DNA of 64,000 nt from an uncultured Acidobacteriota bacterium (GCA_963725325.1 CAVRYF010000014.1:810390-874389), one strand, 5' to 3'; positions 12,679-63,280 are shown, counted from the first letter of the stretch. Notes: a model not told the origin generated them from the letters alone. Program-made: numbers and translations.

Positions 12679-12957
12679 CTACGTCTCATTCCACACGTAC
12701 AGGAACGTGCCATCGCTGGCGGTCGCCACGTTGCGCCCGCCCTTCCGCGTCGCGCGATTCAACGCGGACCGCACTTTTTCCTTGCTGTCTGTCAATTGCG
12801 CCAGCGGCACCTTGAGCGCGACGCCGTTCTGGACTTGATCGAGATCCGAGAGAATCCTGGTCACAATCGCCTTGTGCTTGCCATTGCGGCCCTGCGGAAC
12901 GTCAACCTGCGGCATGCCCATGAAATTCATCGGTGCCTTTTTCCTCGGAGCAGCCAC
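12679..12957 (-). CDS. Hypothetical 92-aa protein
   Basis: The ORF is intact with genome-typical codon usage. It has a basic N-terminus and no recognised motif. It is preceded by an AT-rich region containing ACGTTA repeats. Confidence 0.5.
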   Translation of the reverse strand: MAAPRKKAPMNFMGMPQVDVPQGRNGKHKAIVTRILSDLDQVQNGVALKVPLAQLTDSKEKVRSALNRATRKGGRNVATASDGTFLYVWNET

Positions 12958-12984
12958 AGCCCACTCTCCTTCAGCCAGACGTAA

Positions 12985-13053
12985 ACGTTAAACTAACGTA
13001 ACGTTATCGTATGACCTGATTACGAGTCACACCAGTATACATTCGATACGTTA
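12985..13053. promoter_or_regulatory. AT-rich divergent control region with three ACGTTA hexamers and a 13-bp palindrome TAACGT-A-ACGTTA (12994-13006)
   Basis: Read directly: ACGTTA occurs at 12985, 13001 and 13048, and TAACGT at 12994. G+C is visibly lower than in the flanks. The region lies 28-96 nt upstream of the minus-strand start at 12957. Confidence 0.35.
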
Positions 13054-13201
13054 AGCAGCCCCCACCCCTGCGCTGACCGCGCCATTCGAGTGCGCGGGCA
13101 AGAGACTCGGTAATAGAGCGCGTAAGCCAAGGCTTAAAGGGCTCAGATCGGCTTTGAAAGGATCTGACCCGTATGACGTGCGTCCGAGGTACTGTTCCTC
13201 T

Positions 13202-13399
13202 ATGACGAAACCGAGCGCGCGACTGAAGATCCCTACGCATTTCGAGCAGATTCCCATTGAGGTCGTGAAGAAGATTGTCGAGAGTGATGTTTCGAGCGGC
13301 GACAAGGCTGGAACCAATACTGTGACCGCGGGGCCGGCCCCGGGATCGAAGAGGCCTCAGAAAGCGCCGGCACGCTCGCTCGCTAAAAAGGGTCGCTGA
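13202..13399 (+). CDS. Possible small hypothetical protein (65 aa)
   Basis: This is the internal ATG of track ORF 13154..13399: MTKPSARLKIPTHFEQIPIEVVKKIVES... with a basic tail. No motif was recognised. Codon bias is only moderately convincing. Confidence 0.3.
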   Translation: MTKPSARLKIPTHFEQIPIEVVKKIVESDVSSGDKAGTNTVTAGPAPGSKRPQKAPARSLAKKGR

Positions 13400-45794: not shown

Positions 45795-46023
45795 GGCTAC
45801 CCCTTGTTGACGGACGCCGATCGTGTCGCCGACCGGATATTACGTCGTCTTCACGGGCGGAAACCAGTCTCGACGGTCCGGCGCTCGGCGTTCGGCGCTC
45901 GGGAAGGCCCGAAACCTGAGCTCTGAGCCCCCGTCTTGAGCCTCTCCCAGTACGTATGCTAAGTTCATAGCACCTTTTGCCGACTTCATCCGTCTAAGGG
46001 TTGTGGACAACAGACAGACACTC

Positions 46024-50823: not shown

Positions 50824-53235
50824 ATGATGTCTGCGCTTCAGGACCTTCGACTCGGTACCCGCCTCCTCGTCCGATCTCCGGGCTTCAGCCTCGTCGCGGT
50901 CGTCGCGCTCGCGGTTGGTATTGGGGCGAATACCGCGATCTTCAGCGTCATCAATACGCTCCTCCTGCAGCGCCTGCCGTATCCCGACGCCGATCGCCTG
51001 GCGATCGTCTGGGAGCACAACACGGTGCGCGATCGGAAGAGCAACGTCGTCGGGCCCGCCAACTTCATCCACTGGCGCGAGATGAATCAGGTCTTCGAGG
51101 ATCTTGCCGCCGCGACCATCACCTACAGCGTGACGCTCGGCGGCGACGGCGAACCGGAGGAACTGCAGGCGCAGTCGATCTCGGCGGAGCTCTTCCAGGT
51201 CCTTGGTGTGCCGCCGGCGCTCGGCCGCGGTTTCACGGCTGCTGAGAACGTCCCCGGCACCACCAGTGTCGTCATCAGTGATCGGCTGTGGAGGCGCAGG
51301 TTCGGTGCCAGTCCGACCATTCTCGAACGGCCGATCGTTTCGCAAGCGACGCCGTACACCGTGGTCGGCGTCATGCCGCCGCGCTTTTCGTTCCTCGACA
51401 AGACCGTGGATGTGTGGCTGCCAATTGGATTCACGGCCCAGTCACGCACGCCTCGCGGGCGCTCGCTCGTGGTTGTCGGCCGTCTCAAGCCGGGAGTAAC
51501 GGCCGAACGCGCCCAGCTGGACATGACGCGCGTCTCCGCCAACCTGACGCAGATGTTTCCCGAGTTCAACACGGGCTGGAGCTCCCGCGTCGTGCCACTG
51601 CGCGAGCAGCTGACCGGCGACGTCCGCCCCGCACTCATCGTGCTCGCCGCCGCTGTGGCGTTTGTTCTCCTGATCGCCTGCGCCAACGTCGCCAACCTCC
51701 TCCTGGCTCGGGCGACGGCGCGTCACCGCGAGCTTGCGGTTCGCGCCGCGCTTGGCGCCGGTCGGGCGCGGCTCGTCCGTCAGTTGCTGGCGGAGAGCCT
51801 CGTGCTTTCTGGCATCGGTGGTCTGTGCGGTCTTCTGCTCGCCTGGTGGGCACTTGGATTCCTTCGCGCCGTTGTTGCCGAACGGCTGCCCATCCAGCGC
51901 CTCGAGATGGTCACAATCGACTTCACCGTGCTCCTGTTCACGCTCGGCGCGTCACTGGTGTGCGGCCTCGTCTTCGGCATCGTTCCAGCTTTGACGGCCT
52001 CGGGCACGAGCCTCACGGATTCGCTGAAGGAAGGCGGGCGCACGGGATCGGCATCGCGCGGGAACCGGACGCGCGGCGCCTTTGTGATCGTCGAAGTGGC
52101 CCTTGCGCTGGTGCTCCTCGTTGGCGCGGGTCTCCTCGTGCGCAGCTTCGCGCGCCTGCTGGAGCAAAGCCCCGGATTCGATCCTTCGCGAACGGTGACG
52201 ATGCGCATTTCGCTGCCTCAGGCGCGCTATGGCGGCCAAGGCCAGCGGGCGCAGTTCCTGGCTCGCCTGTTCCAGCAGGTGGACGCGCTCCCAGGTGTTG
52301 AAGCCTCGGGCGCCATCAGTTTCCTTCCTCTCACCGGTCTCGCCGCCGCGACGTCGATGGAGATCGTGGGCAAGCCCACGCCTGCACGGGGGCAGGAGCC
52401 CGTCACCGACGTCCGCGTGATCACGCATGACTATCTGAAGACGATGGGAGTTCCACTCCTCAAGGGACGGCTCTTCAGCGAGCCGGATGCCTCGGATGCC
52501 AAGGGGCGCGTCATCGTGAACGAGACCATGGCGCTCAGGCACTGGCCTGGCGAGGATCCGATCGGCAAGCACGTCCGCATCTCCTGGGACAACCAGGAAG
52601 ACGAGGTCATCGGCGTAGTTGGCGACGTCAGACACCACGGGCTTGATGTCGAGAGCCGGGCGATGACCTATTGGCCGTACGCGCGGAATCCCTATGGCAC
52701 GATGACCGTCACGGTGCGAGCCACGGGCGATGCCAGCCGGATCGCCACGTCCATCGTTGCGCTCGTTCGCCAGCTCGATCCCGACATGGCCGTCGCCAGC
52801 ATCAAGACGATGGACGAGGTGGTGTCCAATTCGGTCGCGGAGCGCCGCCTCACGATGCTGCTGCTCACGTGCTTCGCCGGCGCGGCGCTTCTCCTCGCCG
52901 CCGTCGGCATCTACGGCGTGATCGCGTATGGCGTCACCGAGCGGACGCAGGAAATCGGCATCCGGATGGCGCTCGGTGCCCAGCGTGGCGACGTGCTGCG
53001 CATGGTGGTGAGGCAGGCGCTCCTGCTCGCCGTGGCCGGCATCGTCATCGGCGGCGCGGGGGCGCTGGTGCTGACACGGCTGATGGAAGGACTGCTGTTC
53101 CAGGTGAAGCCCTGGGACCCGGTGACGTTTGCCGTGGTCAGCGGGGTCCTGGCGGCCGTGGCGCTCCTTGCGAGCTACATCCCGGGCCGACGGGCCACGC
53201 GAGTCGACCCGGTGATTGCGCTCAGGGGTGAGTGA
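50824..53235 (+). CDS. Duplicated MacB/FtsX-type ABC permease without adjacent ATPase (ADOP-type orphan permease)
   Basis: The N-terminus is LQDLRLGTRLLVRSPGFSLVAVVALAVGIGANTAIFSVIN. There are two MacB-like halves, each with a large periplasmic domain and FtsX helices. The C-terminus is ...RTQEIGIRMALGAQRGDVLRMV. Confidence 0.85.
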   Translation: MMSALQDLRLGTRLLVRSPGFSLVAVVALAVGIGANTAIFSVINTLLLQRLPYPDADRLAIVWEHNTVRDRKSNVVGPANFIHWREMNQVFEDLAAATITYSVTLGGDGEPEELQAQSISAELFQVLGVPPALGRGFTAAENVPGTTSVVISDRLWRRRFGASPTILERPIVSQATPYTVVGVMPPRFSFLDKTVDVWLPIGFTAQSRTPRGRSLVVVGRLKPGVTAERAQLDMTRVSANLTQMFPEFNTGWSSRVVPLREQLTGDVRPALIVLAAAVAFVLLIACANVANLLLARATARHRELAVRAALGAGRARLVRQLLAESLVLSGIGGLCGLLLAWWALGFLRAVVAERLPIQRLEMVTIDFTVLLFTLGASLVCGLVFGIVPALTASGTSLTDSLKEGGRTGSASRGNRTRGAFVIVEVALALVLLVGAGLLVRSFARLLEQSPGFDPSRTVTMRISLPQARYGGQGQRAQFLARLFQQVDALPGVEASGAISFLPLTGLAAATSMEIVGKPTPARGQEPVTDVRVITHDYLKTMGVPLLKGRLFSEPDASDAKGRVIVNETMALRHWPGEDPIGKHVRISWDNQEDEVIGVVGDVRHHGLDVESRAMTYWPYARNPYGTMTVTVRATGDASRIATSIVALVRQLDPDMAVASIKTMDEVVSNSVAERRLTMLLLTCFAGAALLLAAVGIYGVIAYGVTERTQEIGIRMALGAQRGDVLRMVVRQALLLAVAGIVIGGAGALVLTRLMEGLLFQVKPWDPVTFAVVSGVLAAVALLASYIPGRRATRVDPVIALRGE

Positions 53236-53244
53236 GGCCCCCGG

Positions 53245-53337
53245 GGCGGTGTCAGGCAGTGAATCGTGAATCGTGTCGCTTTGGCCTTGGAACAAGCCAA
53301 AAACCGCGCAATTCACGATTCACTGCCTGACACCGCC
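53245..53337. repeat. Perfect 27-bp inverted repeat (39-nt loop) containing GTGAATC heptamer repeats
   Basis: The left arm GGCGGTGTCAGGCAGTGAATCGTGAAT (53245-53271) is the exact reverse complement of 53311-53337. The loop holds a small TTGGC/GCCAA hairpin. It lies between the permease stop (53235) and the next start (53372). Confidence 0.9.
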
Positions 53338-53371
53338 TCCCCGAGCCCTTTTGCAGTACGATCCCTGACGA

Positions 53372-54682
53372 ATGCTGCTGGCGTCAGGGATCATCACCCT
53401 GCTGATCCTGCTGACGGCGCTGTTCGTGGCGGCCGAGTTCGCCGTCGTGGGCGCGCGCCGGAGCCGGTTGCGACGGCTGGCCGAGGACGGCAACGCGCTC
53501 GCTGCCCGGGTGCTGCCCGTCCTCGAAGACCCGCACGCGCTCGACCGGTACATCGCTGCGTCGCAGGTCGGCATCACCCTTTCCAGCCTGATCCTCGGAG
53601 CCTACGCGCAGGCGTCGATCGCGCCGCGGGTTGCTCCCTTCATCCAGCGTCTCGGAGGACTGGAAGCCGAAACCGCCCAATCCACCTCAGCGGTCATCGT
53701 CCTGCTCATCCTGACGACGCTGGCGATGATTGTCGGAGAGCTCGTGCCGAAGTCCATCGCGCTGCAGGACCCCACCCGAACCGCGATGTGGACGGTCATC
53801 CCGATGCAGTGGTCCCAGCGCGCGTTTTCGTGGTCGATCGATTTCCTGAACGGCAGCGGCAACCTGCTGCTGAAGCTGATGCGCGTCAAGAACACCGGGC
53901 ATCGGCACGTGCACTCGCCCGACGAGATCGAGCTGCTCATCGCCGAGAGCCGCGACGGAGGGCTGCTCGAGCCGCAGGAGCAGGTCAGGCTGCATCAGGC
54001 GCTCAGGCTCGGTCTACGGACTGCGCGCGAGCTGATGGTCCCGCGGGCGCGCCTGGCATCGGTCGACGTGTCGACGCCCTTCGCGGATGTCCTCAGGCTG
54101 GTCGCCACCAGTCCCTACAGCCGGCTGCCCGTCTATCGCGCGTCGCCCGACGACATCATCGGCATCCTGCACACCAAGGATGTCGTCACCGGCTTCATCA
54201 ACGAGCGCGCCCAGACGTCCCTGATGTCGCTGCTGCGGCCGCTCGCCCGCGTGCACGGCAGCATCCCGGCCGACCATCTCCTGGCCTACATGCGCGACAA
54301 GCGCATCCACCAGGTGCTCGTGGTTGGCGAAGGCGGGCAGATCGAGGGGCTGATCACACTCGAGGACGTCGTCGCCGAGCTCATCGGCGGCGTGTCCGAC
54401 GAGTTCAAGGGCGCACCCGCGCGCGCCATTCTCCTGCCCGACGGCAGCGTGCGGCTTCCCGGAGCCATGCGCGTGGATCAAGCGGCGCAGGTGCTCGGCG
54501 CCGATTGGAAGGGTCCGGGTGACACGGTGGGCACGTTCGTTCCGCGCGTGCTTGGCGGCGTTCCAGCCCCCGGCGAGCAGGTCACGATCAGGGGCGTCGA
54601 CCTGGTGATCGAGGCGGTCGAGGATGACGTGGTGTCGTCGGCGGTCGTCCTTCCGCCTTCGACGAAGGACGCCCCGGAATGA
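53372..54682 (+). CDS. CNNM/CorC-HlyC family protein (DUF21 TM domain - CBS pair - CorC_HlyC)
   Basis: The N-terminus is LLTALFVAAEFAVVGARRSRL. It also has VGELVPKSIAL, a CBS pair (...MVPRARL..., ...HQVLVVGEGG...EGLITLEDV) and a C-terminal transporter-associated domain. Confidence 0.85.
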   Translation: MLLASGIITLLILLTALFVAAEFAVVGARRSRLRRLAEDGNALAARVLPVLEDPHALDRYIAASQVGITLSSLILGAYAQASIAPRVAPFIQRLGGLEAETAQSTSAVIVLLILTTLAMIVGELVPKSIALQDPTRTAMWTVIPMQWSQRAFSWSIDFLNGSGNLLLKLMRVKNTGHRHVHSPDEIELLIAESRDGGLLEPQEQVRLHQALRLGLRTARELMVPRARLASVDVSTPFADVLRLVATSPYSRLPVYRASPDDIIGILHTKDVVTGFINERAQTSLMSLLRPLARVHGSIPADHLLAYMRDKRIHQVLVVGEGGQIEGLITLEDVVAELIGGVSDEFKGAPARAILLPDGSVRLPGAMRVDQAAQVLGADWKGPGDTVGTFVPRVLGGVPAPGEQVTIRGVDLVIEAVEDDVVSSAVVLPPSTKDAPE

Positions 54683-55968
54683 CGGCCTTCCTGATCATCA
54701 CCGGACTCATCCTGCTCAACGGTATCTTCGTTGCGGCGGAGTTCGCGATCGTGGGTGCACCTCGCGCCTCGATCGACGCGCGCGCGGCCCGCGGCAACCG
54801 GCTGGCCGCGGCCGTACAGGCCGTGCTGCGCGACCCGAGGCGTCAGGATCGGTACATCGCGACAGCCCAACTGGGCATTACCGTCGCAAGCCTCGGCCTC
54901 GGCATGTATGGCGAGCACGTCCTGGCCGATGCGATCTACTACCGCATCGACAACGCTGGCGCGCCCGCATGGCTCGTCTCGCACGGCCTCGCGAGCGTCG
55001 TCGCGATCGCGATCCTCACCTACTTTCACATCGTCATCGGCGAGATGATTCCGAAGTCCCTCGCGCTTCAGCAGGCCGAAACCATGGCGCTCTGGATCAC
55101 GCCGCCGATGTTGTGGACGAAGACTCTCGTCTTCCCGCTCGTCGTGGGGCTCAACGAGATCGGCAACGTCCTGTTGAGATTCCTCGGCGTCAACCGGCAG
55201 GTGCAAAGTGTCGAGCAGTACTACACGCCGGAGGAGCTGCAGCTCGTCGTCCAGGAAAGTGAGGAGCGTGGGGCGATCCGCACGGAGTCCGGTCAGATGC
55301 TGCAGGTGCTGTTCGAATTCGCCACCCTGACTGCCGCGGAAGTCATGGTGCCCCGCGTGCGGATCACCGGACTGCCGCTCGGCAGCACGCCCGACCGCAT
55401 CCGCGAGCTGCTGGGACGCACGCCGCATACGCGCTACCCGGTGATCGAGCACGACCTCGATCACATCGTCGGCATGATTCACATCAAAGACCTGCTGAGG
55501 CTGTTGCTGCGGAACGAACCTATCGGTCAGCCCCACGCACGACCGCTGCCCCTCGTGCCCGAGACCGCGCCAATCGACACCGTGCTCGCTACCATGAGGC
55601 GCGAACACACGCAGATGGTGGTGGTCCTCGACGAGCACGGCGGCACCGCCGGCATCGTCACGCTCGAGGATCTCTTCGAGGAAGTGGTCGGCGACATCGA
55701 CGCTGGCCCGGGATCGCCAGCGCAGGCGTATCGTGACCGCGACGGCCGTCTCCGCGTCCCCGGAACGATGCGGCTCGACGAGCTCGGGCGCGAGTTCGAC
55801 CTCGACCTCGAACACGAGGAGGTCGACAGCGTGAGCGGCCTCGTCCTGGCGCTCCTCGGCCGCCCGCCACAAGTCGGCGATTCGGTGCGCTACGACCGGC
55901 TGCAGCTCGAGGTCACGGCGGTGAAGGGGCGCGGGGTCGAAGAATGTGCCGTGTGCCTGGCCGCGTGA
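54679..55968 (+). CDS. CNNM/CorC-HlyC family protein, paralogue of the preceding gene
   Basis: It has the same architecture (NGIFVAAEFAIVGAPR..., IGEMIPKSLAL, a CBS pair, HTQMVVVLDEHGGTAGIVTLEDL). An ATGA overlap joins it to the upstream gene. Confidence 0.85.
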   Translation: MTAFLIITGLILLNGIFVAAEFAIVGAPRASIDARAARGNRLAAAVQAVLRDPRRQDRYIATAQLGITVASLGLGMYGEHVLADAIYYRIDNAGAPAWLVSHGLASVVAIAILTYFHIVIGEMIPKSLALQQAETMALWITPPMLWTKTLVFPLVVGLNEIGNVLLRFLGVNRQVQSVEQYYTPEELQLVVQESEERGAIRTESGQMLQVLFEFATLTAAEVMVPRVRITGLPLGSTPDRIRELLGRTPHTRYPVIEHDLDHIVGMIHIKDLLRLLLRNEPIGQPHARPLPLVPETAPIDTVLATMRREHTQMVVVLDEHGGTAGIVTLEDLFEEVVGDIDAGPGSPAQAYRDRDGRLRVPGTMRLDELGREFDLDLEHEEVDSVSGLVLALLGRPPQVGDSVRYDRLQLEVTAVKGRGVEECAVCLAA

Positions 55969-55986
55969 CGTTCGGAGGCCCGAACG
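55969..55986. terminator. Stem-loop CGTTCGG-AGGC-CCGAACG filling the whole 18-nt gap between convergent genes
   Basis: Read directly. It starts 1 nt after the plus-strand stop and ends 1 nt before the minus-strand stop. Confidence 0.5.
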
Positions 55987-57906
55987 CTATCCCACGTGAA
56001 TGCGCGGCCGCTTGAGCGGGTTCGACTCGTTCTGCCTCAGCACCTCGCGCGTCACGGGCGCCGTGTCGCCCTCGCCGAGCGCCAGGAACTTCATCAGGTA
56101 GACAATCGGGTTGCCTTCGGTCCACCCGAAATACGCGTGCGGGATTTGTCCGGTCTCGTCGCGGAGGTAGAGGAGCAGCGCCGCGATGGCGTTGGGAATG
56201 GCCGAACTGACGCAGCGCAGGACGTGATGCCGGCCGACTTCGACACCCTCGACGTGCAGGCGTCCGCTGAACTCCGAAACATCCCCAGGACGCACCTCGA
56301 GGAAGAGCACCCGTTCGTCCTTCGTCAGGTGATGAGAGTCGCTGGCCTCGCGGAGCTTGTGCTCGTACTCCTCGGGCTGCCCGGTATCGGGACGATTGGC
56401 GATGATCCGGATGGGACCACCTCCGGCATCGTGCATGAATCGCCGGGCGGTCTCGTCTGGCTCCACTGACTGCACCCGCAGCTCAGTCGACCTGAGAACG
56501 CGCGAGATGAGCGACGTCACGATGATCGTGACGATGAACCATGACGCGATCTTGACGCCGTCGGGCCGTTCGATGATGTTGACGATGGTCGTGTAGAGGA
56601 AGACGACCGTGATCGCGCTGAACGCCAGCCAGAGGCGCCGCTGGGCGCGGACCGAGAGCGTCACCGCGACGGCCGCCGAGGTCATCAGGACCAGCACGCC
56701 GGTCGCATACGCGCCGCCCTGCGCTTCGACGTCGGCGTCAAAGATGATCGTGATGATGAAGGTGATGACCGTGAAGAGCACGACCAGCGGCCGTGACGCC
56801 CGCGCCCACTCCGGCGCCATGCCGTAGCGCGGCAGATAGCGGGGCACCAGGTTCAGGAGCCCGGCCATCGCCGAGGCGCCCGCAAACCACAGGATGGAGA
56901 TCGTACTCAGGTCGTAGACCGTACCGAATACCTCGCCGAGGTGTTCGTGGGCGAGAAACGCGAGGGCTCGGCCCCACGCCCGGCCGCCCTCCTCGAATTC
57001 ATGCGGTGGAATGAGCAGCGTCGTGATGAACGAGCTGCCCATGAGCAGCACCGTCATGATGAGCGCCGCGGTGGCCAGCAGCTTCTTCGCGTTCCGGATG
57101 CGGCCCGCTGGCCGCGCCGGATCGTCGCCGGGATCGCCCTGGACGAGCGGCATCACCGCGACGCCGGTTTCGAAGCCCGACAAGCCAAGCGCCAGCTTCG
57201 GGAAGACAATCAGGGCGGCGGCCAGCATCATCACCGGGTTGCCGTGGGCCTGCATCAGCCCATCGCGCCATCGCGGGAGGTACTCTGGATGATGGGCGAT
57301 TTCGAGGACGCCCCAGACGATGACCACCACATTGAGCGCCAGATAGATCGCCACGATGAAGACCGCGAGGCCGATCGCTTCCCGGAAGCCTTTCAGGAAG
57401 ACCGCCGACAGCATCGTCAGCAGGACGAGCGTGAGGCCGATCGGATGATTCGTCCACGTCGGCACGAACGGATTGCCCACGATGTGCGCGGTCGCGTCGG
57501 CTGCCGACAATGTGATGGTGATGACGTAGTCGGTCGCCGCGAACCCGAGCAGACAGAGGACGAACACCTTGCCGCGCCACCTGGGCAGCAACTCCTCGAG
57601 CATCGAGATGCTGCCCTGCCCATGGGGACTGTTCTCGGCCACGCGCCGGTAGATCGGCAACGCGCCAAAAAGCGTCAGAAGGATGAGGACCAGCGTCGCA
57701 ATCGGGGACAGCGCACCGGCGGCGAGGAACGCGATGCCGGGCTGATAGCCGAGGGTCGAAAAATAGTCGACGCCGGTGAGGCACATGACCTTCCACCACG
57801 CATCCTGGTGGACGTGCTGTGCGTGTGGTCCGGCCGGCTCGCGAAGCCCTTCGAGAAACCACCGATTGAACCGGCGCCGCCGCCTGGCAGAGAGTCCAAA
57901 TGGCAT
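55987..57906 (-). CDS. APC-superfamily-like transporter with C-terminal cytoplasmic domain
   Basis: It has about 12 helices. The N-terminus is [29 protein letters not shown] soluble tail of about 180 aa follows. The family assignment is from general resemblance only. Confidence 0.55.
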
Positions 57907-57915
57907 ATCGATCGA

Positions 57916-59193
57916 TCAGATCTCCCCGCGCGCGGCCGCGAGCTCGAGCGTCTCGTCACTGGCCTCGTTGAACTCGCCTTCCCATTTCGCGACGACGACC
58001 GTGGCTAGGCAGTTGCCGACCACGTTGACCATCGTCCGCGCCATGTCCATGAGCTCGTCGACGCCGAGGATGAGCGTCACGCCCTCGAGCGGCAGCCCGT
58101 ATCTAGCGAGCGTGCCCGCGAGGATGACGAGCGACGCCCGGGGCACACCCGCGACGCCCTTGCTCGTCAGCATCAGCGTCAGGAGCATCGTGATTTGCTC
58201 GCCGATGGACAACTGGACGCCGGCGGCCTGCGCGACGAAGATCGACGCGAGCGACAGGTAGAGCGTCGTCCCGTCGAGGTTGAAGCTGTAGCCGAGCGGC
58301 AGCACGAACGCGACGATCCGGCGAGGCACCCCCAGCCGCTCGATGACCTCCATCGCGCGGGGCAGCGCCGCTTCGCTCGAGGTAGTCGAGAACGCGATAA
58401 TCGCCGGCTCCTTCACCGCCTTGATGAACTTCCGGATCGGCACCTTGAAGATGAGCGCCACCGGCAGCAGGACGAGCAGGACAAACGCCGTCAGCGCGAG
58501 GTAGAGCGTGGCGACGAGCCAGGCGAGGTTTACCAGCACGCGCAGCCCGCCGTGCCCGACCGTATACGCGATCGCCGCGCCGACGCCGATCGGCGCATAG
58601 TGCATGACGATGTTCGTGAACTTGAACATCGTTTCGGCAACGGCCTCGCACCACGCGACAACCGGCCGGCCCTTCTCCCCAATCATGCCGAGCGCGATGG
58701 CGAAGAGAATGCTGAAGACGACGATCTGCAGCACGTCGCCTTCGGCCATCGACTTGATGACCGAGTCCGGCACCGTGTGCAGCAGGATCTGGTCCCAGGT
58801 CTGTGCCACGGCCGTGATCTCGGACTTCTGGCCCATCGGCAGATTGACGCCGACGCCAGGCTTCATGACGTTGACCGCCACGAGCCCAATGACGAGCGCG
58901 AGTGTCGTGACGATCTCGAAATAGATGATCGCCCGCAGCCCCATCCGGCCAACGACCTTGACGTGGCCGGCGCCGGCGATCCCGGCGACGAGCGTCGCGA
59001 AGATCAGCGGCGCGATGATCATCTTGATCAGGCGCAGGAACAACTGGCTGAACGGACGGAAGTAGACGGCGGCGGCGGGGTTGTACTCGCTGACCAACCA
59101 GCCGGCCACGATGCCGAGCGCGAGCCCGATGAAGATCTGTTGCGTCAGGCTCGGTCCCCGCCGGGGCGGGGTCTGGCTATCGACGTGAGCCAT
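57916..59193 (-). CDS. Dicarboxylate/amino acid:cation symporter (DAACS, GltP/DctA-like)
   Basis: Typical motifs are FLRLIKMIIAPLIF, AFSTTSSEAALPRAME, LDGTTLY and VDELMDMARTMVNVVGN. Confidence 0.9.
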   Translation of the reverse strand: MAHVDSQTPPRRGPSLTQQIFIGLALGIVAGWLVSEYNPAAAVYFRPFSQLFLRLIKMIIAPLIFATLVAGIAGAGHVKVVGRMGLRAIIYFEIVTTLALVIGLVAVNVMKPGVGVNLPMGQKSEITAVAQTWDQILLHTVPDSVIKSMAEGDVLQIVVFSILFAIALGMIGEKGRPVVAWCEAVAETMFKFTNIVMHYAPIGVGAAIAYTVGHGGLRVLVNLAWLVATLYLALTAFVLLVLLPVALIFKVPIRKFIKAVKEPAIIAFSTTSSEAALPRAMEVIERLGVPRRIVAFVLPLGYSFNLDGTTLYLSLASIFVAQAAGVQLSIGEQITMLLTLMLTSKGVAGVPRASLVILAGTLARYGLPLEGVTLILGVDELMDMARTMVNVVGNCLATVVVAKWEGEFNEASDETLELAAARGEI

Positions 59194-59210
59194 GCGGAAG
59201 TGACCCTTGC

Positions 59211-59338
59211 AATGCTGAATGCTGAGTGTTGAATGCTGAAGTGAATGCTGAGGTAGCTAGGTTACTGCGAACGTCGAACGTGAGTGTGAATCTGGACTTC
59301 AGCATTCACTTCAGCACTCAGCATCAGCATTCAGCATT
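59211..59338. repeat. Imperfect long inverted repeat built from AATGCTG heptamers (complement CAGCATT on the right arm), with CGAACGT x2 in the loop
   Basis: The left arm is AATGCTG AATGCTG AGTGTTG AATGCTG AAGTG AATGCTG AG (59211-59252). The right arm is CTTCAGCATTCACTTCAGCACTCAGCATCAGCATTCAGCATT (59297-59338). An exact 18-nt pairing joins 59234-59251 to 59299-59316. An exact 12-nt pairing joins 59211-59222 to 59327-59338. Confidence 0.85.
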
Positions 59339-59398
59339 CCCCGAGCGGCCGAGGCGGCAGATTATCACACCCCTGCAGGGGTGCCAGAGGCGCCCAGG

Positions 59399-60163
59399 CT
59401 AGAGAAAAAGCGTGCGTGCGGTCAGCTCCCGGGGGTCGAGTCCCGCGGCTCGCGCGAGGCCGCGCTGGGCGGGCGGGAGGTCGGTGGGGAATCGCCACTC
59501 GTCGGCGCGCCCGCCGGCGCGCTCGACCGCGGCCTGCCAGTCTCGCCACCAGGGCAGCGAGCGGCGGGCTATGGGCTCGACGACGAGGACTCGAGCGCCT
59601 TGCGCATGCGTCTCGAGCAGCCACGTCAGCAATATCGCGCGGCCGCCCGGCGGGAGCTCGTTGGCGGCGTAAGCCGCGACAACGGCGCTGCCGCGGCCCA
59701 ACCCATTCCCAGTCCGCTTGTGCAGCACTCCGGGTTCCGCGATGTTGGCCTGCACGGCCCGGCCATGCAGCTGAAACTGTCGATAGGTCCAGTTCGTTTC
59801 CGCAATCGCCCAGGGGTGACGGTCGAACGCGCGAATCGACCGCGATCCCGCTGCCAGCGCCCATGCGGCGCCAGCCGCACCGGTTCCGCAGCCGAGATCG
59901 ATCACTTCGGTGATGTTTTCGATGGCTGATGGCAACTCCTTGAGGATCTCCCGCGTGATGAGGAGGTGCTGCGGGCCGTAAAAAAGCGCAAACGCCGCGC
60001 GCTTGCCCTTCGACGACAGGGCACCACCTTCGGCGAGCTTGTCCCTCCGCTCGACGTAGCACGACGAGAGTGCGCGCAGTGCGCGGCCGACCTCGCTCAG
60101 GGTGAGGTCGGCAAGGTGGCGGCGCTCGAGCGCCTCGAGCCAGGCGGCAGTCAGTGGATCCAC
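59399..60163 (-). CDS. Class I SAM-dependent methyltransferase (Rsm22-like)
   Basis: The SAM motif I is VIDLGCGTGAAG. It has an N-terminal helical region and a C-terminal basic segment. Confidence 0.7.
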   Translation of the reverse strand: MDPLTAAWLEALERRHLADLTLSEVGRALRALSSCYVERRDKLAEGGALSSKGKRAAFALFYGPQHLLITREILKELPSAIENITEVIDLGCGTGAAGAAWALAAGSRSIRAFDRHPWAIAETNWTYRQFQLHGRAVQANIAEPGVLHKRTGNGLGRGSAVVAAYAANELPPGGRAILLTWLLETHAQGARVLVVEPIARRSLPWWRDWQAAVERAGGRADEWRFPTDLPPAQRGLARAAGLDPRELTARTLFL

Positions 60164-60265
60164 TTGTGAGAGACTAAAGTCACTTCAGGAGGCGACTTGG
60201 AGCCTGTAACGTGTTGTAAAACAATGAGTTGAAAAGATACGCTCTTTGCAGTGCAATAGCAGGCC

Positions 60266-60559
60266 ATGGTTGTGTCCCGGGTGATGTTGCTCCTCTTTCT
60301 GACGGCTCAGGGCTTCGATGGCCTCTTCACCTACACGGCTGTCCACGCCTACGGGCTCCATGCGGAGGGCAACATGGTCATCGCTACGTGGATGGCCCTC
60401 GTCGGTCCCGCCGCGGCACTTTTCGGCGCCAAGACCGTGGCTGGCGCGTGCGGTGTGCTGCTCTACGCGCGCGGCCTGCATCGGACACTCTCCCTCCTGA
60501 CGATCGTCTATCTCGTCGGCGCCATCGGTCCCTGGCTGATGGTGTTCGTCAATCATTAG
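60266..60559 (+). CDS. Small membrane protein (DUF5658-like, 4 helices)
   Basis: MLLLFLTAQGFDGLFTYTAV...EGN resembles the DUF5658 pattern. The ORF is hydrophobic. Confidence 0.5.
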   Translation: MVVSRVMLLLFLTAQGFDGLFTYTAVHAYGLHAEGNMVIATWMALVGPAAALFGAKTVAGACGVLLYARGLHRTLSLLTIVYLVGAIGPWLMVFVNH

Positions 60560-61790
60560 CTGCTCGCGGCTGGCTGATGGCTGCTCGCGGCTCGATCTTT
60601 CTACACACGGCAATCAGGGCGACGTACGCGATCAACCCGGCGATCGTGTACACCGACCAACCGCGCGCGAGATTGAAGCCGGTTCTTCCGAGCGTCAGCG
60701 GCGAGAGGCCGGTGGTAAGCACTGCCGCAGTCCAGAACGCGCAGCGTCCCGCTCGACCGAGCAGTCGTCGATCCTGACTGTCGTAGAGAATCAGGAACGC
60801 AGGGAACAACAGCGTCCAGTAATGATCCCATGCGATCGGAGAGAGCAGGATCGCGAGAGCCGTTACTGCGGCGACCTCGGTCGGGACTGCACTCGGACGC
60901 CGCGGCGTCCTGACGATAATCACGGCCAGTGCCGCGGCGAGCAGGACCGCCAGGGCGCCGAAGAGAATTATCGTCAGCGGCGCTTCTGCTCCAACTCTGA
61001 TGCCCGCGGGATCGACGCTGGCTGACGAGGGGCCCAGCGTAAGCCGATCGAGCGCGGCTATGAGCGACTGGTTGTTGCCCCGAATCGGCCAGCCGCTGTT
61101 GCCCAGCCGCCAGAACGTTCGCGCGAGATCGGAGAAGCCTGCGACGCCGTAGATCGCTGTCGGCATCACGACCGACAGCACGAACGCCGAGGCTGTCGCT
61201 GTGATGGCTGCGGTCCAATGGCGCCGCGCCGCGAGATACAGGATCATGAGCGCTGGAAACGCCTTCAGCGCCGTCGCGATCCCAACCAGAAGACCGGCGA
61301 CGGCCGCCGACCCGAGCGTCAACTGCCAGGTCGCGCCGGCAAGGAGCGCGAGCAGCAGGGCATTCATGTTCTGGTGCTCGAAGTTGGTCTGAAGCGGCAG
61401 CAGAATCGCGACGAGCGGCGCGAAGAGCATGGGGAGCCACGACCGCGCCGGCAGTCCGATCCGTCCGCGCGCCGCGTCCCATGCCTTCAGACTCAGCCAG
61501 ATGCCCAGGCCGAGACACCCGAGATTGAGCGCGTGCCAGAGGAGCTTGGCCCCAACCGGACTCGTGGACGCCACGGCCGCGAACGGCGCGAAGAACATCG
61601 CCTGGAACGGCGGACCGATGAACCCCGCGGCGGCGCTGCTGCCGGCGTAGAGCGGCTCGGCGTACAAGACTCGCCGTCCTCCTTCGAAGAACACCGCCGC
61701 GTCGCCTCCTTTATTGAGGGCGTTCGCGGTATTGAGGATCGAGAAGAGGACCGCGAGGAGAGCGAGCAGGCGGGAGGATGTGCGGGACAC
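60549..61790 (-). CDS. Polytopic glycosyltransferase, family 87 / DUF2029-like
   Basis: Features are ...NKGGDAAVFFEGGRRVL..., ...QNMNALLLALLAG... and KAFPALMILYL, with about 10 helices. I place the start at GTG 61790 (VSRTSSRLLALLAVLF). The track ORF continues to 62414 only because the repeat tract lacks stops. Confidence 0.65.
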   Translation of the reverse strand: MSRTSSRLLALLAVLFSILNTANALNKGGDAAVFFEGGRRVLYAEPLYAGSSAAAGFIGPPFQAMFFAPFAAVASTSPVGAKLLWHALNLGCLGLGIWLSLKAWDAARGRIGLPARSWLPMLFAPLVAILLPLQTNFEHQNMNALLLALLAGATWQLTLGSAAVAGLLVGIATALKAFPALMILYLAARRHWTAAITATASAFVLSVVMPTAIYGVAGFSDLARTFWRLGNSGWPIRGNNQSLIAALDRLTLGPSSASVDPAGIRVGAEAPLTIILFGALAVLLAAALAVIIVRTPRRPSAVPTEVAAVTALAILLSPIAWDHYWTLLFPAFLILYDSQDRRLLGRAGRCAFWTAAVLTTGLSPLTLGRTGFNLARGWSVYTIAGLIAYVALIAVCRKIEPRAAISQPRAAND

Positions 61791-61804
61791 GTCTATGAAA
61801 GTGT

Positions 61805-61957
61805 GAAGTCTGACGTACGAAGTCTGAAGTTGGGAAGGACGAAGTTGGGAGTTTGAAGTAGAAGCGGCAAGTAAGCGGGAAGCGGGAAGTCGGAAGTGGG
61901 AAGTCGGAAGTGGGAAGTCGGAAGTGGGAAGTCGGAAGTGAAGTGGGAAGCTGGAAT
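61805..61957. repeat. GAAG-initiated heptamer tract; core is eight perfect alternating GGAAGTC/GGAAGTG units (four perfect 14-bp units, 61884-61939)
   Basis: Read directly: GGGAAGTCGGAAGT occurs 4 times. It is flanked upstream by degenerate GAAGTCT, GAAGTTGG, GAAGCGG and AAGCGGG units, and downstream by GAAGTGGGAAGCTGGAAT. It lies in the divergent region between the starts at 61790 (-) and 62016 (+). Confidence 0.9.
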
Positions 61958-61972
61958 CCGCCCTCGCTTCCG

Positions 61973-62012
61973 AAGACTCTTGACAGAGTCTTACAATTTG
62001 TAAGACTCTGTC
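61973..62012. promoter_or_regulatory. Probable PadR operator: perfect 31-bp palindrome (61982-62012) overlapping a second 8-4-8 palindrome (61973-61992)
   Basis: GACAGAGTCTTACAA-T-TTGTAAGACTCTGTC ends 3 nt before the PadR ATG. The half-site AAGACTCT occurs at 61973 and 62002 and its reverse complement AGAGTCTT at 61985. A TACAAT hexamer is at 61992-61997. Confidence 0.6.
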
Positions 62013-62015
62013 GCC

Positions 62016-62324
62016 ATGAAGAGCGCGCGGCTGCCCACCCTCTCGGCCAAGGAGCGCATCGTCCTCGAGTTGCTTGTCTCGTCGGGCGGGAGGTACGGGC
62101 TGCAACTGGTCGACGAATCCCGCGGGCGGCTGAAGCGTGGAACCGTCTACGTCACGCTCGGCCGGATGGAGCAGAAAGGGCTCGTCGAATCGCGTCACGA
62201 GCCCGCGACGCGCGAAGAGGACGCGCTCACCCGCCGCATGTATCACGCGACCGGACACGGCCGGCGGGTCTTGGATGCCTGGAACCTCGTGGCGCGGACG
62301 CTGGCGCCGGAGCCGGGCCGATGA
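62016..62324 (+). CDS. PadR-family winged-helix transcriptional regulator
   Basis: ERIVLELLVSSGGRYGLQLVDESRGRLKRGTVYVTLGRMEQKGLVESR is the typical PadR wHTH pattern. Confidence 0.85.
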   Translation: MKSARLPTLSAKERIVLELLVSSGGRYGLQLVDESRGRLKRGTVYVTLGRMEQKGLVESRHEPATREEDALTRRMYHATGHGRRVLDAWNLVARTLAPEPGR

Positions 62325-63280
62325 CGAACACGCGAGTGCCGGGGGCGCGATTGCGTCGATTCGCGGAGCGGACGTTCGATCGCCAGACGCTCGACCGCGT
62401 GGTGCAGCCGGCAATCGCGGATCTGCAGCACGAGTGCGTCGGAGGAGCGGCGTTCGTTCGGGCTCGAGCTTATGTCGGGGTCTGGAAAACGTTCTGCGTG
62501 TGTCTCGTCGGCGATGCAGTGCGAGACCGCCAGGGCTGGACTCGATCGATCGCCGCCCGGACTGTTCTATACCTGCTTCTGCTGGCCGGCCTGATCTTGC
62601 TGCCCGGGATCGGCTGGTGGCGCTCGTTCGCGGATGCTCACGGCCGGAGCACGGCGGCCGCGGCGGCAGCTTTCTTCCTGCCAGCCACCCTCGTCATGGC
62701 GCTGCCGATGGCGTTCTTCCTTGCCATCGCCTTGCGGCGTTCCGATGATGGGCCGAGGCTCGTGGGGCTCATCCCGGCAACGATCGCGGCCGCAACAGCG
62801 TGCGCCGTCGTCATCCTCTGCGGCGTCATGTTCTTCGTGCCGTACACCAACCAGGCGTACAGAGAGGTCGTCTTCAACGCGCTCTCCCCCTCAATCGATA
62901 ATGCCCCGCGGGTCCTCAGCAAAGGGTTGCCGGAGATGAACTGGGTCGAGTTGAACGAGCACATACGCTACGCTCCGAGCAGCCGTCAGGAGGCCCTCGC
63001 GCGTGCGCACCGGCAGTTGCGGTTCGCGATGTCAGCCTCGGCATTCGTACTCGCCATGCTCGGTCTTGGACTGACTCGCCGCTGGCGCTCGCGGACGGCT
63101 ACGGCTGCCGCGGCGTTGGTTGTACTTCTCGTGTACGGCACGTTCCTCTTCCTCGGGCACGAGATCGACGGTGGCGGATATCCATCTGCCTACAGTGTGT
63201 GGGCGGCGAACCTCGCTTTCGCTCTCGCCGGGCTGCGTCTCCTGCGGTCAAGGCGGGACTGGACCGACGTGGCCGCATAG
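62321..63280 (+). CDS. PadR-linked integral membrane protein, LptF/LptG (YjgP/YjgQ)-like permease lacking the periplasmic domain (tentative)
   Basis: An ATGA overlap joins it to the PadR stop. It has six hydrophobic helices in a 3+3 arrangement. The segment LPEMNWVELNEHI...RAHRQLRFAMSASAFVLAMLGLGL resembles, from memory, the conserved LptF/G segment preceding TM4. The upstream part of track ORF 61910.. is discounted. Confidence 0.6.
   Translation: MTNTRVPGARLRRFAERTFDRQTLDRVVQPAIADLQHECVGGAAFVRARAYVGVWKTFCVCLVGDAVRDRQGWTRSIAARTVLYLLLLAGLILLPGIGWWRSFADAHGRSTAAAAAAFFLPATLVMALPMAFFLAIALRRSDDGPRLVGLIPATIAAATACAVVILCGVMFFVPYTNQAYREVVFNALSPSIDNAPRVLSKGLPEMNWVELNEHIRYAPSSRQEALARAHRQLRFAMSASAFVLAMLGLGLTRRWRSRTATAAAALVVLLVYGTFLFLGHEIDGGGYPSAYSVWAANLAFALAGLRLLRSRRDWTDVAA

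Follow-up and report, generated by a model that had tools for sequence, protein, structure and literature searches.

Heptanucleotide repeat arrays in the non-coding DNA of Vicinamibacterales and three intergenic elements of a 64-kb locus

Introduction

The short tandemly repeated repetitive (STRR) sequences of cyanobacteria are built of heptamer words such as CCCCAGT, TTGGTCA and CAACAGT. Heptamer repeats are not limited to cyanobacteria, for which an earlier note on the DNA studied here had cited them, but are also described in Xanthomonas, Beggiatoaceae and Bacteroidetes (PMC4679880, PMC4692102), and a 2007 survey, as far as these two papers relate it, found that among the long simple repeats of prokaryotes the heptanucleotide class is the most abundant in most genomes. 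For the TAACTGA repeats, a role in translation and the binding of a cold-shock-type protein have been proposed as speculation (PMC4679880). Why the number is seven, and what bacterial heptamer repeats do in general, is mechanistically unsolved. Vicinamibacterales are not among the lineages described in the searchable literature, and searches of it for the repeat words reported below, and for repeats in Vicinamibacteria, returned nothing relevant.

We analyzed a 64,000-nt stretch of DNA (the window) from an uncultured Acidobacteriota bacterium. The earlier note had proposed that three intergenic elements, at 53.2, 59.2 and 61.8 kb, belong to one lineage-specific class of GAA-core heptamer repeats with strict 7-nt periodicity, in which the period and a flank, not the exact word, are conserved. 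The heptamer words and flank positions that it claimed are all present in the DNA where it placed them.

Materials and Methods

The DNA sampled amounted to 664 kb and comprised the window and 32 related Vicinamibacterales loci (33 loci; samples of about 20 kb per genome), which are given L numbers where they must be told apart. Gene boundaries, and with them the coding mask (556 kb) and the non-coding mask (108 kb), came from a home-made GC3-based method without annotation. This mask miscalled the second CNNM gene and overextended the GT87 frame. Tandem repeats were called with Tandem Repeats Finder (TRF), and the chance expectation for arrays was taken from dinucleotide shuffles. Metagenome matches to the end of the GAAGT family were picked with a pattern that itself contains TGA.

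Results

Period-7 arrays in the non-coding DNA of the lineage

The non-coding DNA of the 33 loci contained 53 arrays of period 7, as against 0.35 expected from dinucleotide shuffles, an excess of about 150 times; arrays of period 14 and period 21 numbered 12 and 3, respectively, and those of periods 6, 8 and 5 numbered 10, 7 and 0. The coding mask held 17 period-7 arrays, so that the non-coding density was about 18 times the coding density, and these intergenic counts are approximate because the gene boundaries come from a home-made GC3-based mask. Arrays numbered 10.5 per 100 kb in the lineage; among loci retrieved with the same query, the figure was 5.4 for those of high GC from outside the lineage and 2.4 for those of low GC. 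These data bear out the proposed existence of a lineage-wide class of intergenic repeats. The rule that each unit has a GAA core held in part: GAA was the most enriched trinucleotide, occurring in 31 of the 66 distinct units where about 13.5 were expected (z 6.7), but about half of the units, including CGGCGCT, CCCCAAG and GGAGGCA, lack it. One array of the latter kind lies in the window:

45879-45902, no strand assigned: intergenic CGGCGCT x 3.4 array without GAA, between the divergent MscL and BlaI-type repressor genes

Comparison across relatives showed that orthologous gaps carry different heptamers. The gap upstream of the SDF symporter gene has GAATGCT in the window, CGGCGCT x 6 in L004 and AGAAGGT x 6.6 in L027, and the gap between the permease and CNNM genes has GTGAATC in the window, AACTCCC/TTGGGAG in L009, CAGTCGA in L004 and GGAGGCA/TCGGAGG in L044. 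L118 and L149 represent near-identical strains: over about 1100 nt there is 1 mismatch, and besides a single 7-nt unit only two larger indels, 32 and 150 nt long, set them apart. Upstream of an FmdB-like gene, a 368-nt element in L002 and a 43-nt element in L113 share the same right flank, and the element is absent in L005, L009 and L023.

An inverted partner was found at most 400 nt away for 33 of 68 arrays, and L002 has a 185-bp hairpin of -225 kcal/mol. The rates at which arrays occurred were similar whether the neighbouring genes were tandem, convergent or divergent, and arrays often abutted stop codons. A single gene-end role for all of them, as terminators or as promoters, was ruled out, since every gap type carries arrays.

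Element 3 and the GAAGT family

The third element and the conserved end that it shares with its relatives are as follows:

61797-61957, + strand: element 3, in the gap from which GT87 and PadR diverge; GAAGTNK heptamers in direct array, not mirrored

61797-61841, + strand: GAAAGTGTGAAGTCTGACGTACGAAGTCTGAAGTTGGGAAG, the conserved outer end of the GAAGT family

Element 3 gave the sole sustained period-7 signal within the window, which TRF called as 11.4 copies of period 7 or 4.5 copies of period 14, with 97% matches; its unit spacing was read from AAG anchors. Its near-perfect core spans 61873-61950, where GAAGTCG and GAAGTGG alternate from 61886 to 61934, and it contains 11 units in the window compared with a short array in L001. 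As RNA, it is unstructured on both strands. A distance of 6 nt separates the beginning of the outer end GAAAGTGTGAAGTCTGACGTACGAAGTCTGAAGTTGGGAAG from the GTG with which the GT87 glycosyltransferase gene (- strand) starts at 61790. The same end of about 45 nt, with the same unit spacing (7, 14, 7, 8, 7...), was found in L001, in L003 and at both ends of two elements in L002, and it gave 71 unique matches on high-GC metagenome contigs, for which the statement that the array supplies a stop codon is partly built in because the search pattern contains TGA. The tight placement of array starts against reading-frame ends does not follow from this pattern.

The consensus of 73 units of the GAAGT family is G-A-A-G-T-N-K, and the mismatch from one unit to the next was 0.14-0.22 in GAAG and 0.60 at position 6. 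Downstream of genes the sense orientation was favoured (52 vs 21). GAATGCT and GAAGT units are mixed inside single elements in L030 and L137. Elements 2 and 3 are members of a single GAAGTNK/GAATGCT superfamily, whose outer end is conserved.

A 621-codon reading frame runs through element 3 on the pyrimidine-rich strand. We rejected the idea that element 3 encodes extra N-terminal residues of the glycosyltransferase, since this frame runs into the PadR gene and the GC3 coding signal stops near 61790-61809.

Elements 1 and 2

The other two elements are the two longest local inverted repeats within the 64 kb:

53243-53339, + strand: element 1, a 97-nt hairpin and the longest local inverted repeat in the window

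53245-53289 and 53293-53337: arms of element 1

53259-53275, + strand: GTGAATC/GAATCGT x 2.4 in the left arm of element 1 (TRF, period 7)

53338-53346, + strand: flank TCCCCGAGC, directly after element 1 and retained in the L001 ortholog

53349-53364, + strand: TTTTGCAGTACGATCC, a conserved motif shortly before the ATG (53372) of the CNNM/CorC gene

59210-59339, - strand: element 2, a palindrome of GAATGCT, GAAGT and GAGTG units, from TRF and an inverted-repeat search

59210-59254 and 59296-59339: arms of element 2

59269-59282, + strand: GAACGTC GAACGTG in the loop of element 2, conserved in L001

59338-59346, + strand: flank TCCCCGAGC, directly after element 2

59361-59369, - strand: TGTGATAAT, which resembles an extended -10 box, just upstream of element 2

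In element 2, GAATGCT stands at 59217, 59231 and 59243 and is mirrored as AGCATTC at 59301, 59326 and 59333. TRF called period 7 x 6.1 and x 6.4, or about 6 copies per arm with 77-81% identity, and the array is broken by 5- and 6-nt units. Its RNA fold was computed at -71.6 kcal/mol (z-score -9.0). Orthologs were found in L001, with about 200 nt inserted in the loop, and in L003, where the element is shorter; TGTGATAATCTGCCGCC precedes the GAATGCT hairpin in the window, L001 and L003. About 17 nt lie between the end of the element and the start codon of the downstream SDF symporter gene (- strand). If TGTGATAAT is a promoter, element 2 would be within the 5' untranslated region of the SDF symporter mRNA, its probable location.

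Element 1 begins 8 nt past the stop codon of the MacB/FtsX permease gene. Its left arm has GAATCGT at 53261-53267 and 53268-53274, and its right arm mirrors the GTGAATC/GAATCGT repeat at about 53311-53326 with about 1.9 copies. The RNA fold was computed at -75.4 kcal/mol (z-score -10.4). In the L001 ortholog, the stem is preserved through a paired A:T to G:C change and the central loop is inverted relative to the window. A BLAST search against all DNA retrieved returned the ortholog only and no dispersed copies. Element 1 is essentially a unique palindrome with one 7-nt duplication, and its membership in the heptamer class is weak because just 2.4 copies are found, in the left arm. The strict 7-nt periodicity claimed for all three elements is thus a property of the core of element 3, not of element 1, with its two copies, or of element 2, which is interrupted and mirrored.

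From the permease stop codon to TTTTGCAGTACGATCC, the sequence is entirely different from species to species; the TTTTGCAGTACGATCC motif was also seen by eye in printed sequences of L002, L003, L009, L023 and L030. TTTTGCAGTACGATCC is probably a promoter or leader, in which case element 1 would form the 3' end of the transcript that precedes it. A TTTT lies 10 nt past element 1 and does not adjoin the stem. Among the 5 terminator-like sites predicted in 52800-62400, none is on elements 1-3, and a sigma-70 scan gave no promoter support on the three elements. The scans thus gave no support for the elements as Rho-independent terminators, which have a short G+C-rich stem and then a T run. A search of the window against Rfam 15 at gathering thresholds matched no RNA family, and a permissive Rfam search gave for element 1 only sub-threshold microRNA-precursor matches, typical of any long hairpin.

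The flank of the two inverted repeats

We confirmed that TCCCCGAGC directly follows both inverted repeats. The 9-mer occurs 2 times in the window against 1.5 expected by chance, so its frequency is ordinary and its placement alone is odd. In the orthologs of element 2, the flank reads CCCCAGCGCC in L001 and is absent in L003. We listed all 15 non-coding occurrences of CCCCGAGC in the 664 kb and found no recurrence beside other arrays or hairpins, the sole further cases being the element 1 ortholog and an unrelated array of CCCGAGC units. The latter (CCCGAGC x 7.6, in the orthologous gap of L044) is not an expansion of the flank, because it has the opposite orientation.

CCCCGAGC was ruled out as a class feature by its non-recurrence in the 664 kb and by its frequency in the window, which is that of chance. 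Although TCCCCGAGC is genuine, its failure to recur puts it outside any repeat grammar. Of the proposal that period and flank are conserved but not the word, the first part stands, with the period kept and the words unrelated in orthologous gaps, whereas the flank does not.

Discussion

We propose that the elements are probably local heptanucleotide simple-sequence arrays, of a kind very abundant in Vicinamibacterales non-coding DNA, that arise by seeding and then grow in place. A short GAA-containing seed, often a palindrome of about 40 nt with the outer end GAAAGTNTGAAGTCTGA, would appear in a gene gap; seeds are present or absent at an orthologous site. Gain and loss of 7-nt units would then alter the interior where it lies, with slipped-strand mispairing of replicating DNA as the likeliest route, and near-identical strains do differ in length by one unit. 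Arrays could be mirrored into hairpins, with paired changes keeping the arms complementary and the loop able to flip, and would spread until coding sequence is met, so that many begin at a stop codon or extend over one. Any influence on expression is probably a side effect of where an array lies. The hairpin of element 1 may stabilise the 3' end of the permease mRNA or aid termination without a U-tract. Element 2, as a long hairpin in the probable 5' untranslated region of the SDF symporter mRNA, and element 3, as an unstructured purine/pyrimidine-biased spacer directly upstream of the GT87 start codon and upstream of the PadR operator, could affect expression as well.

Local slippage would not account for everything. 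The same outer end of 17-20 nt is found at many unrelated loci and genomes, which calls for strong convergence or for some means of spreading. Mobile palindromes akin to MITEs or REPs, dispersed by a transposase that recognises the ends GAAAGTNTGAAGTCTGA ... TCAGACTTCANACTTTC, would spread in this way; copies would reach gene gaps by insertion, with the arrays as cargo. The end of about 45 nt is indeed found at non-orthologous loci, in two elements within 6 kb of L002 and also in L003 and L030. The 71 unique high-GC metagenome matches, around which the sequence outside the end is unconserved, the GAAAGT borders that also mark arrays outside the search-pattern selection, the presence or absence of the element upstream of the FmdB-like gene and the mixture of GAATGCT and GAAGT units in single elements (L030, L137) are all consistent with mobility. 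However, target-site duplications were seen at 0 of 10 complete palindromes inspected, no conserved target sequence lies outside the end, and the length at one orthologous site ranges from 43 to 368 nt with differing interiors between shared ends. Moreover, dozens of unrelated heptamer families have the period alone in common, so that a single mobile family cannot explain the arrays, and we regard this explanation as unlikely. A classical MITE was not supported, since neither target-site duplications nor near-identical copies of defined length were found.

Neutral slippage and mutation do not predict the strongly position-dependent variation of GAAGT units either, so that the core must be under some constraint. 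Arrays could be binding platforms for a putative lineage factor that reads a 7-nt register, with selection keeping the GAAG/CTTC core and the spacing; a candidate reader would be an OB-fold protein, for instance one with a cold-shock domain, each molecule of which would take up one heptamer of the pyrimidine-rich strand (MNACTTC) in single-stranded RNA or DNA. The conserved core with free positions 6-7 among the 73 units, the enrichment of GAA among distinct units (z 6.7) and the sense orientation favoured downstream of genes (52 vs 21) point in this direction, as does the spacing, because 7 nt is unsuited to cooperative binding on one face of a duplex and suited to single-strand binders. Bacillus CspB binds heptamer repeats with one protein per heptamer (PMC4679880), and Nostoc heptamer repeats near start codons are reported to affect expression, for which an unidentified partner has been proposed (bioRxiv 10.1101/2022.06.06.494920). 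Against a reader stand the roughly half of units without GAA, the unrelated words at orthologous gaps, the arrays in every type of gene gap, the copy number that varies freely between close relatives, and the mirroring of half of the arrays, which would therefore be double-stranded in RNA. We find binding platforms for such a reader very doubtful, and it is quite unlikely that the core, the free positions 6-7, the spacing and the outer end are the footprint of a putative single-strand-binding factor or of an enzyme that lays down or copies units. That the three elements are unrelated coincidences, namely ordinary terminator or regulatory hairpins and one chance tandem repeat, is scarcely credible. 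The two heptamer copies in the left arm of element 1, its recurrence in the ortholog alone and the chance frequency of the 9-mer flank would fit such a view, but period 7 exceeds the shuffle expectation about 150 times in the lineage, elements 2 and 3 have units in common that co-occur in single arrays elsewhere, relatives of element 3 are widespread and no terminator-like site lies on the elements. For elements 2 and 3, coincidence is refuted by the period-7 excess and the widespread relatives.

Seeding and growth in place must accommodate the conserved core with its free positions, the outer end, the mirrored hairpins, the starts at stop codons and the one-unit differences between strains, as must any other model. 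Nothing found here explains the preference for 7 nt. If there were a dedicated factor, the arrays would be made or kept for a purpose rather than being slippage debris, and would offer a way into why seven bases are used. The density in this lineage of abundant soil bacteria appears to be high: extrapolation from 10-13 arrays per 100 kb suggests several hundred arrays per genome, and very stable hairpins are placed in probable untranslated regions of transporter genes. On the practical side, assemblies from short reads break at such arrays, and the pyrimidine-rich strand acquires long but spurious reading frames, such as that of 621 codons through element 3.

The arrays share with REP/BIME sequences a palindromic, intergenic nature, a position often just past stop codons, dispersal with a conserved end and a possible stabilisation of mRNA 3' ends; REPs are short, fairly uniform and without internal tandem arrays, whereas the interior here is made of variable heptamers. 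The TAACTGA repeats of marine Beggiatoaceae, some cyanobacteria and Bacteroidetes are likewise intergenic, often adjoin start codons and have stop codons within the unit, and Bacteroidetes have long mixed heptamer assemblages (PMC4679880). TAACTGA, however, is a single dominant word, mostly in direct copies numbering 2-6 (PMC4679880), whereas here there are many words, frequent palindromes and a GAAGT family that prefers the 3' side of genes. The GGGAATC repeats of Xanthomonas and GGGGA(T/C)T repeats of Nostoc resemble ours in the over-representation of intergenic heptamers and in some inverted pairs able to form stem-loops, but they are G-rich and studied as quadruplex formers, which our units are not, and inverted pairs are a minority among them as compared with about half of the arrays here (PMC4692102).

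A close likeness is to the STRR and other heptanucleotide repeats, which, as far as the published summaries of them go, are also tandem 7-nt units in intergenic DNA, with period 7 far above neighbouring periods, many unit words per genome and copy numbers that vary between relatives. None of the 66 distinct units matches the STRR words given in the Introduction. Set against the same summaries, the arrays described here differ in their strong GAA/GAAG bias, conserved outer end and mirrored hairpins of up to about 185 bp. Since an excess of heptamers is documented in cyanobacteria, Xanthomonas, Beggiatoaceae and Bacteroidetes, the arrays of Vicinamibacterales extend a known kind of repeat to a new lineage and add new unit families to it.

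Architecture of the three repeat elements

The heptamer words that an earlier note quoted for three intergenic elements were all found at their positions in the window. The elements are as follows.

53243-53339, element 1: 97-nt hairpin, 45-nt arms, 84% complementarity
59210-59339, element 2: palindrome, arms of GAATGCT and 5- to 7-nt variants (GAAGT, GAGTGTT, GATGCT)
61797-61957, element 3: direct array

The left arm of element 1 carries two full copies of GAATCGT (2.4 by TRF) and the right arm about 1.9 mirrored copies. Each arm of element 2 holds about six copies (77-81%, with 11-15% indels, by TRF), and its loop contains GAACGTC and GAACGTG. In the core of element 3 (61873-61950), GGAAGTG and GGAAGTC alternate, giving 4.5 copies of period 14 at 97% and 11.4 copies of period 7 (TRF). 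When the DNA was compared with itself in sliding fashion at shifts of 4-15 nt, sustained periodicity was seen only in element 3, so that the "strict 7-nt periodicity" claimed for all three is true of one.

No other local inverted repeat in the 64 kb is as long as elements 1 and 2, and their RNA folding energies (-75.4 and -71.6 kcal/mol) were matched by none of 200 shuffles. Both strands of element 3 are unstructured as RNA, the pyrimidine-rich strand reaching -3 kcal/mol over 147 nt. No Rfam family matched elements 1-3 and no terminator-like site was found on them, so that they do not pass as members of an Rfam family or as intrinsic terminators. The sole sequence common to elements 1 and 2 is AGTGAAT, and a BLAST search of element 1 against all fetched DNA matched only its ortholog in L001, a locus from a relative (relatives' loci and contigs are denoted by L numbers).

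The same note had seen a common flank, TCCCCGAGC, as part of the grammar. It does directly follow both hairpins, a placement that we estimate roughly and post hoc at 1 in 1,000 to 1 in 10,000, but it did not recur as a class feature in 664 kb of this lineage. Its abundance is ordinary because the observed counts are close to the expected ones: 2 occurrences in the window vs 1.5 by chance, and 6 vs 6.8 for its 8-mer. The 8-mer stood beside repeat elements only in the two window cases, in the L001 ortholog of element 1 and, in the opposite orientation, at a CCCGAGC array of L044. The L001 ortholog of element 2 has CCCCAGCGCC in its place and L003 lacks the flank word. We therefore do not count the flank as a feature of the repeat class.

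Gene surroundings

Genes around the elements were identified with Pfam. The window has 66% G+C, and its nearest relatives are genomes of uncultured Vicinamibacterales (Acidobacteriota). Element 1 follows a gene for a MacB/FtsX permease (+ strand), starting 8 nt past its stop codon, and ends 10 nt ahead of the motif TTTTGCAGTACGATCC. Because this motif is kept in five relatives directly upstream of the CNNM/CorC gene, whereas the stretch from permease stop to motif differs between species, we infer that the permease transcript would carry element 1 at its 3' end.

Element 2, on the transcribed strand, has a methyltransferase gene on one side and the gene of the SDF dicarboxylate symporter on the other, and it stops about 17 nt short of the start codon of the symporter. 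Ahead of it stands TGTGATAATCTGCCGCC, which is similar to an extended -10 box and also present in L001 and L003, suggesting that the symporter mRNA carries element 2 in its 5' untranslated region. A perfect 16-nt palindrome, CACCCCTGCAGGGGTG (59368-59383), directly past the methyltransferase stop codon, shares bases with the -10-like TGTGATAAT that stands upstream of element 2.

Element 3 lies between divergent GT87 glycosyltransferase and PadR genes, starting 6 nt off the GTG start codon of the GT87 gene and ending 25 nt before a perfect 15-bp palindrome at the PadR start. This inverted repeat, GACAGAGTCTTACAA-T-TTGTAAGACTCTGTC (61982-62012), overlaps a TTGACA box, ends 3 nt before the PadR start codon and is kept in L001, L002, L023 and L030. 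It is probably the PadR operator, and the PadR mRNA would be nearly leaderless. Stop codons are absent from the pyrimidine-rich strand of element 3, so that a 621-codon open frame (60549-62414, - strand) passes through it and on across the PadR gene; heptamer arrays can yield spurious long frames and wrong start-codon calls.

A large excess of intergenic period-7 arrays

We sampled 80 loci around SDF homologues, one genome per species, of which 32 were Vicinamibacterales-like and largely syntenic with the window. In the window and these 32 loci (664 kb), a GC3-based mask separated 556 kb of coding from 108 kb of non-coding DNA.

Non-overlapping TRF arrays (at least 3 copies) in 108 kb of non-coding DNA
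Period 5: 0
Period 6: 10
Period 7: 53
Period 8: 7
Period 9: 4
Period 14: 12
Period 21: 3

A genome-wide lack of period-7 excess had been set beforehand as the refuting outcome; the 53 non-coding arrays compare with a mean of 0.35 in twenty dinucleotide-preserving shuffles. The coding mask held 17 in 556 kb. Density per 100 kb was 10.5 in the Vicinamibacterales-like sample, vs 5.4 in the other high-G+C loci of the SDF-homologue search and 2.4 in its low-G+C loci, the latter mostly Bacteroidota. The excess is lineage-wide, large and real, and is greatest in this lineage without being confined to it: other Acidobacteriota and Bacteroidota loci also carry clear heptamer arrays. Array rates were alike in tandem, convergent and divergent gaps (12-17%).

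The window holds further repeats of other kinds. At 43499-43638, a 30-nt unit (4.7 copies, 96% identity) lies in frame within a gene for a 1141-aa SNF2-family helicase with a SWIM zinc finger; it encodes tandem EKSAPVGALG decapeptides, and each unit contains the 20-nt palindrome AGCGCCCCGGTCGGGGCGCT. A 93-nt period at 48134-48799 (7.2 copies, 67% identity) encodes HEAT repeats in the C-terminal part of a BlaR1-like protein, and the next gene (48904-50664) consists of HEAT repeats throughout. The lowest-G+C island (12913-13329, minimum 39%) contains AACGTT-rich short repeats, aaacgttaaactaacgtaacgttatcg, within a long non-coding stretch.

Word turnover at fixed positions

The proposal of an intergenic class that keeps the period and not the word was borne out: words turn over at fixed positions, and orthologous gaps of the window and its relatives hold unrelated heptamers.

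Heptamers in orthologous gene gaps
Permease-CNNM gap, window and L001: GTGAATC hairpin
Permease-CNNM gap, L009: AACTCCC/TTGGGAG mirrored arrays
Permease-CNNM gap, L004: CAGTCGA
Permease-CNNM gap, L023: hairpin of GGGACAGTCAC type
Permease-CNNM gap, L044: GGAGGCA x 6, TCGGAGG/TTGGAGG x 14, CCCGAGC x 7.6
Upstream of SDF, window, L001 and L003: GAATGCT
Upstream of SDF, L004: CGGCGCT x 6
Upstream of SDF, L027: AGAAGGT x 6.6
Upstream of SDF, L014: ACTTCTC
Convergent gap after second CNNM gene, window: 18 nt
Convergent gap after second CNNM gene, L001: AATGCTG x 7.3, whole gap filled
Convergent gap after second CNNM gene, L004 and L023: mirrored arrays

Upstream of SDF, L013 (about 9760-9990) has three tandem REP-like hairpins, gcagcccttcagggctgc then attacgacgacgcgatgcgacagcc, an intergenic repeat of another kind than the heptamer arrays.

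The supposed GAA core holds as a bias. GAA/TTC is the commonest unit trinucleotide (26 of 53 arrays), and GAA occurs in 31 of 66 distinct units where within-unit shuffles would give about 13.5 (z 6.7), the most enriched 4-mers being GAAG, CTGA, AAGT and TGAA; but about half of the units lack it (e.g. CGGCGCT, CCCCAAG, AACTCCC, GGAGGCA), including one in the window. That one is an intergenic CGGCGCT array (x 3.4, 45879-45902) between divergent genes for MscL and a BlaI-type repressor, and after the latter comes a BlaR1-type M56 peptidase with fused HEAT repeats.

In-place change

Arrays change length by whole units between near-identical strains. Contigs L118 and L149 have a single mismatch over about 1100 nt and exactly one AAGTCTG unit of difference. 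Two larger differences between them are a 32-nt indel and a 150-nt duplication beside AAATTCC heptamer repeats (L118 about 1130-1245, L149 about 1100-1258), the latter present in one of the two; heptamer arrays may also promote rearrangements on a larger scale. Ahead of an FmdB-like zinc-ribbon gene, the gap measures 15-30 nt in L005, L009 and L023; in L113 it is occupied by a minimal hairpin of 43 nt and in L002 by a 368-nt element, both with the right flank agagaca. The gene-proximal 55 nt or so of element 3 are kept in the window, L001 and L002, and the distal array is wholly different.

Mirrored arrays keep their complementarity. An inverted partner lay within 400 nt of 33 of 68 arrays, and element 1 differs from its L001 ortholog by a paired A:T to G:C stem change and an inverted central loop. 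In L001, the ortholog of element 2 has an insertion of about 200 nt in its loop (about 9725-9935), with inverted ends of its own (cgaagaccacaaagcgcacgaagg ... ccttcgtgaagggtctcc); this may be a different small element nested in the hairpin.

The GAAGT superfamily and its outer end

Elements 2 and 3 belong to one superfamily with a conserved core and outer end. GAAGT units are present in element 2, and GAATGCT units occur inside GAAGT-type arrays of L030 and L137. Over 73 units the consensus was G-A-A-G-T-N-K, with position 6 free (G 22, C 17, A 13, T 21); mismatch from one unit to the next was 0.14-0.22 for GAAG, 0.31 for T, 0.60 for position 6 and 0.39 for position 7. All arms of the window, of L001 and of two L002 elements at separate places open with the same stretch of about 45 nt, GAAAGTKTGAAGTCTGACGTNNGAAGTYTGAAGT..., and share their unit spacing. 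One L002 element is a 368-nt palindrome that folds back on itself as a hairpin with about 185 bp (-225 kcal/mol).

Metagenome contigs were scanned for GAAAGTNTGAAGTCTGA. Among the matches listed in contigs of at least 58% G+C with enough flank, all of the at least 71 unique ones lead into TGAAGTC arrays, which often have a mirrored partner; those listed in low-G+C contigs are bare chance occurrences. GAAAGT also stands at the borders of arrays found independently of this pattern. The 20 nt outside the end showed no strong consensus among the matches listed, and a weak array-like signal there suggests that the array continues beyond the end in a minority of them. Among the matches listed, the outer end faced the 3' end of a sense-oriented gene 52 times and a gene start 21 times, and 40 of 44 sense upstream genes with a followable frame had their stop codon at -15 to +33 of the array start. 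About half of those stops are a TGA or TAG of the array itself, which is partly built in because the search pattern contains TGA. In unselected arrays of all units, a stop codon lay within 40 nt on 34 of 70 gene-end-facing sides.

Proposed mechanism and comparison with known repeats

We propose that a short seed would appear in a gene gap, that the array would then lengthen and shorten through replication slippage, and that its spread would halt at coding sequence. Its effects would be set by position, as a 3'-end hairpin, a 5'-UTR hairpin, or an unstructured leader or spacer. Slippage leaves unexplained why the period is 7, why GAAG is kept vs the free positions 6-7, and why the outer end recurs at many loci, and these gaps keep two rivals alive. 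The seed may be mobile and REP/MITE-like; ten complete palindromes had no target-site duplications, and this, together with the lack of uniform copies, counts against the elements being MITEs. Alternatively, a factor may read single-stranded nucleic acid in a 7-nt register. Cold-shock proteins have been put forward as such readers in speculation (PMC4679880), and an unidentified partner was proposed in a Nostoc preprint (bioRxiv 10.1101/2022.06.06.494920).

Taken together, the observation in the earlier note is borne out in part, and its interpretation stands as to the class, in part as to the GAA bias, and not as to the flank. In the literature covered, which was short of most subscription journals, we found no paper with these repeat words or on Vicinamibacteria repeats. 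In most prokaryotic genomes heptanucleotide repeats outnumber other long simple repeats, with polymerase slippage proposed, according to a 2007 survey as summarised in PMC4679880 and PMC4692102. GGGAATC repeats of Xanthomonas are found between the same gene pairs in related species, vary in length and at times come as inverted pairs (PMC4692102). In Beggiatoaceae, cyanobacteria and Bacteroidetes, TAACTGA repeats adjoin start codons (PMC4679880), and Nostoc TTTTGAA repeats near start codons alter reporter expression (bioRxiv 10.1101/2022.06.06.494920). The present elements are like heptanucleotide repeats in their tandem 7-nt units, intergenic position, period-7 excess and copy-number change, but their words differ from those already described. 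The class is real, and it represents a new lineage and new unit families of a known, mechanistically unexplained kind of bacterial repeat.
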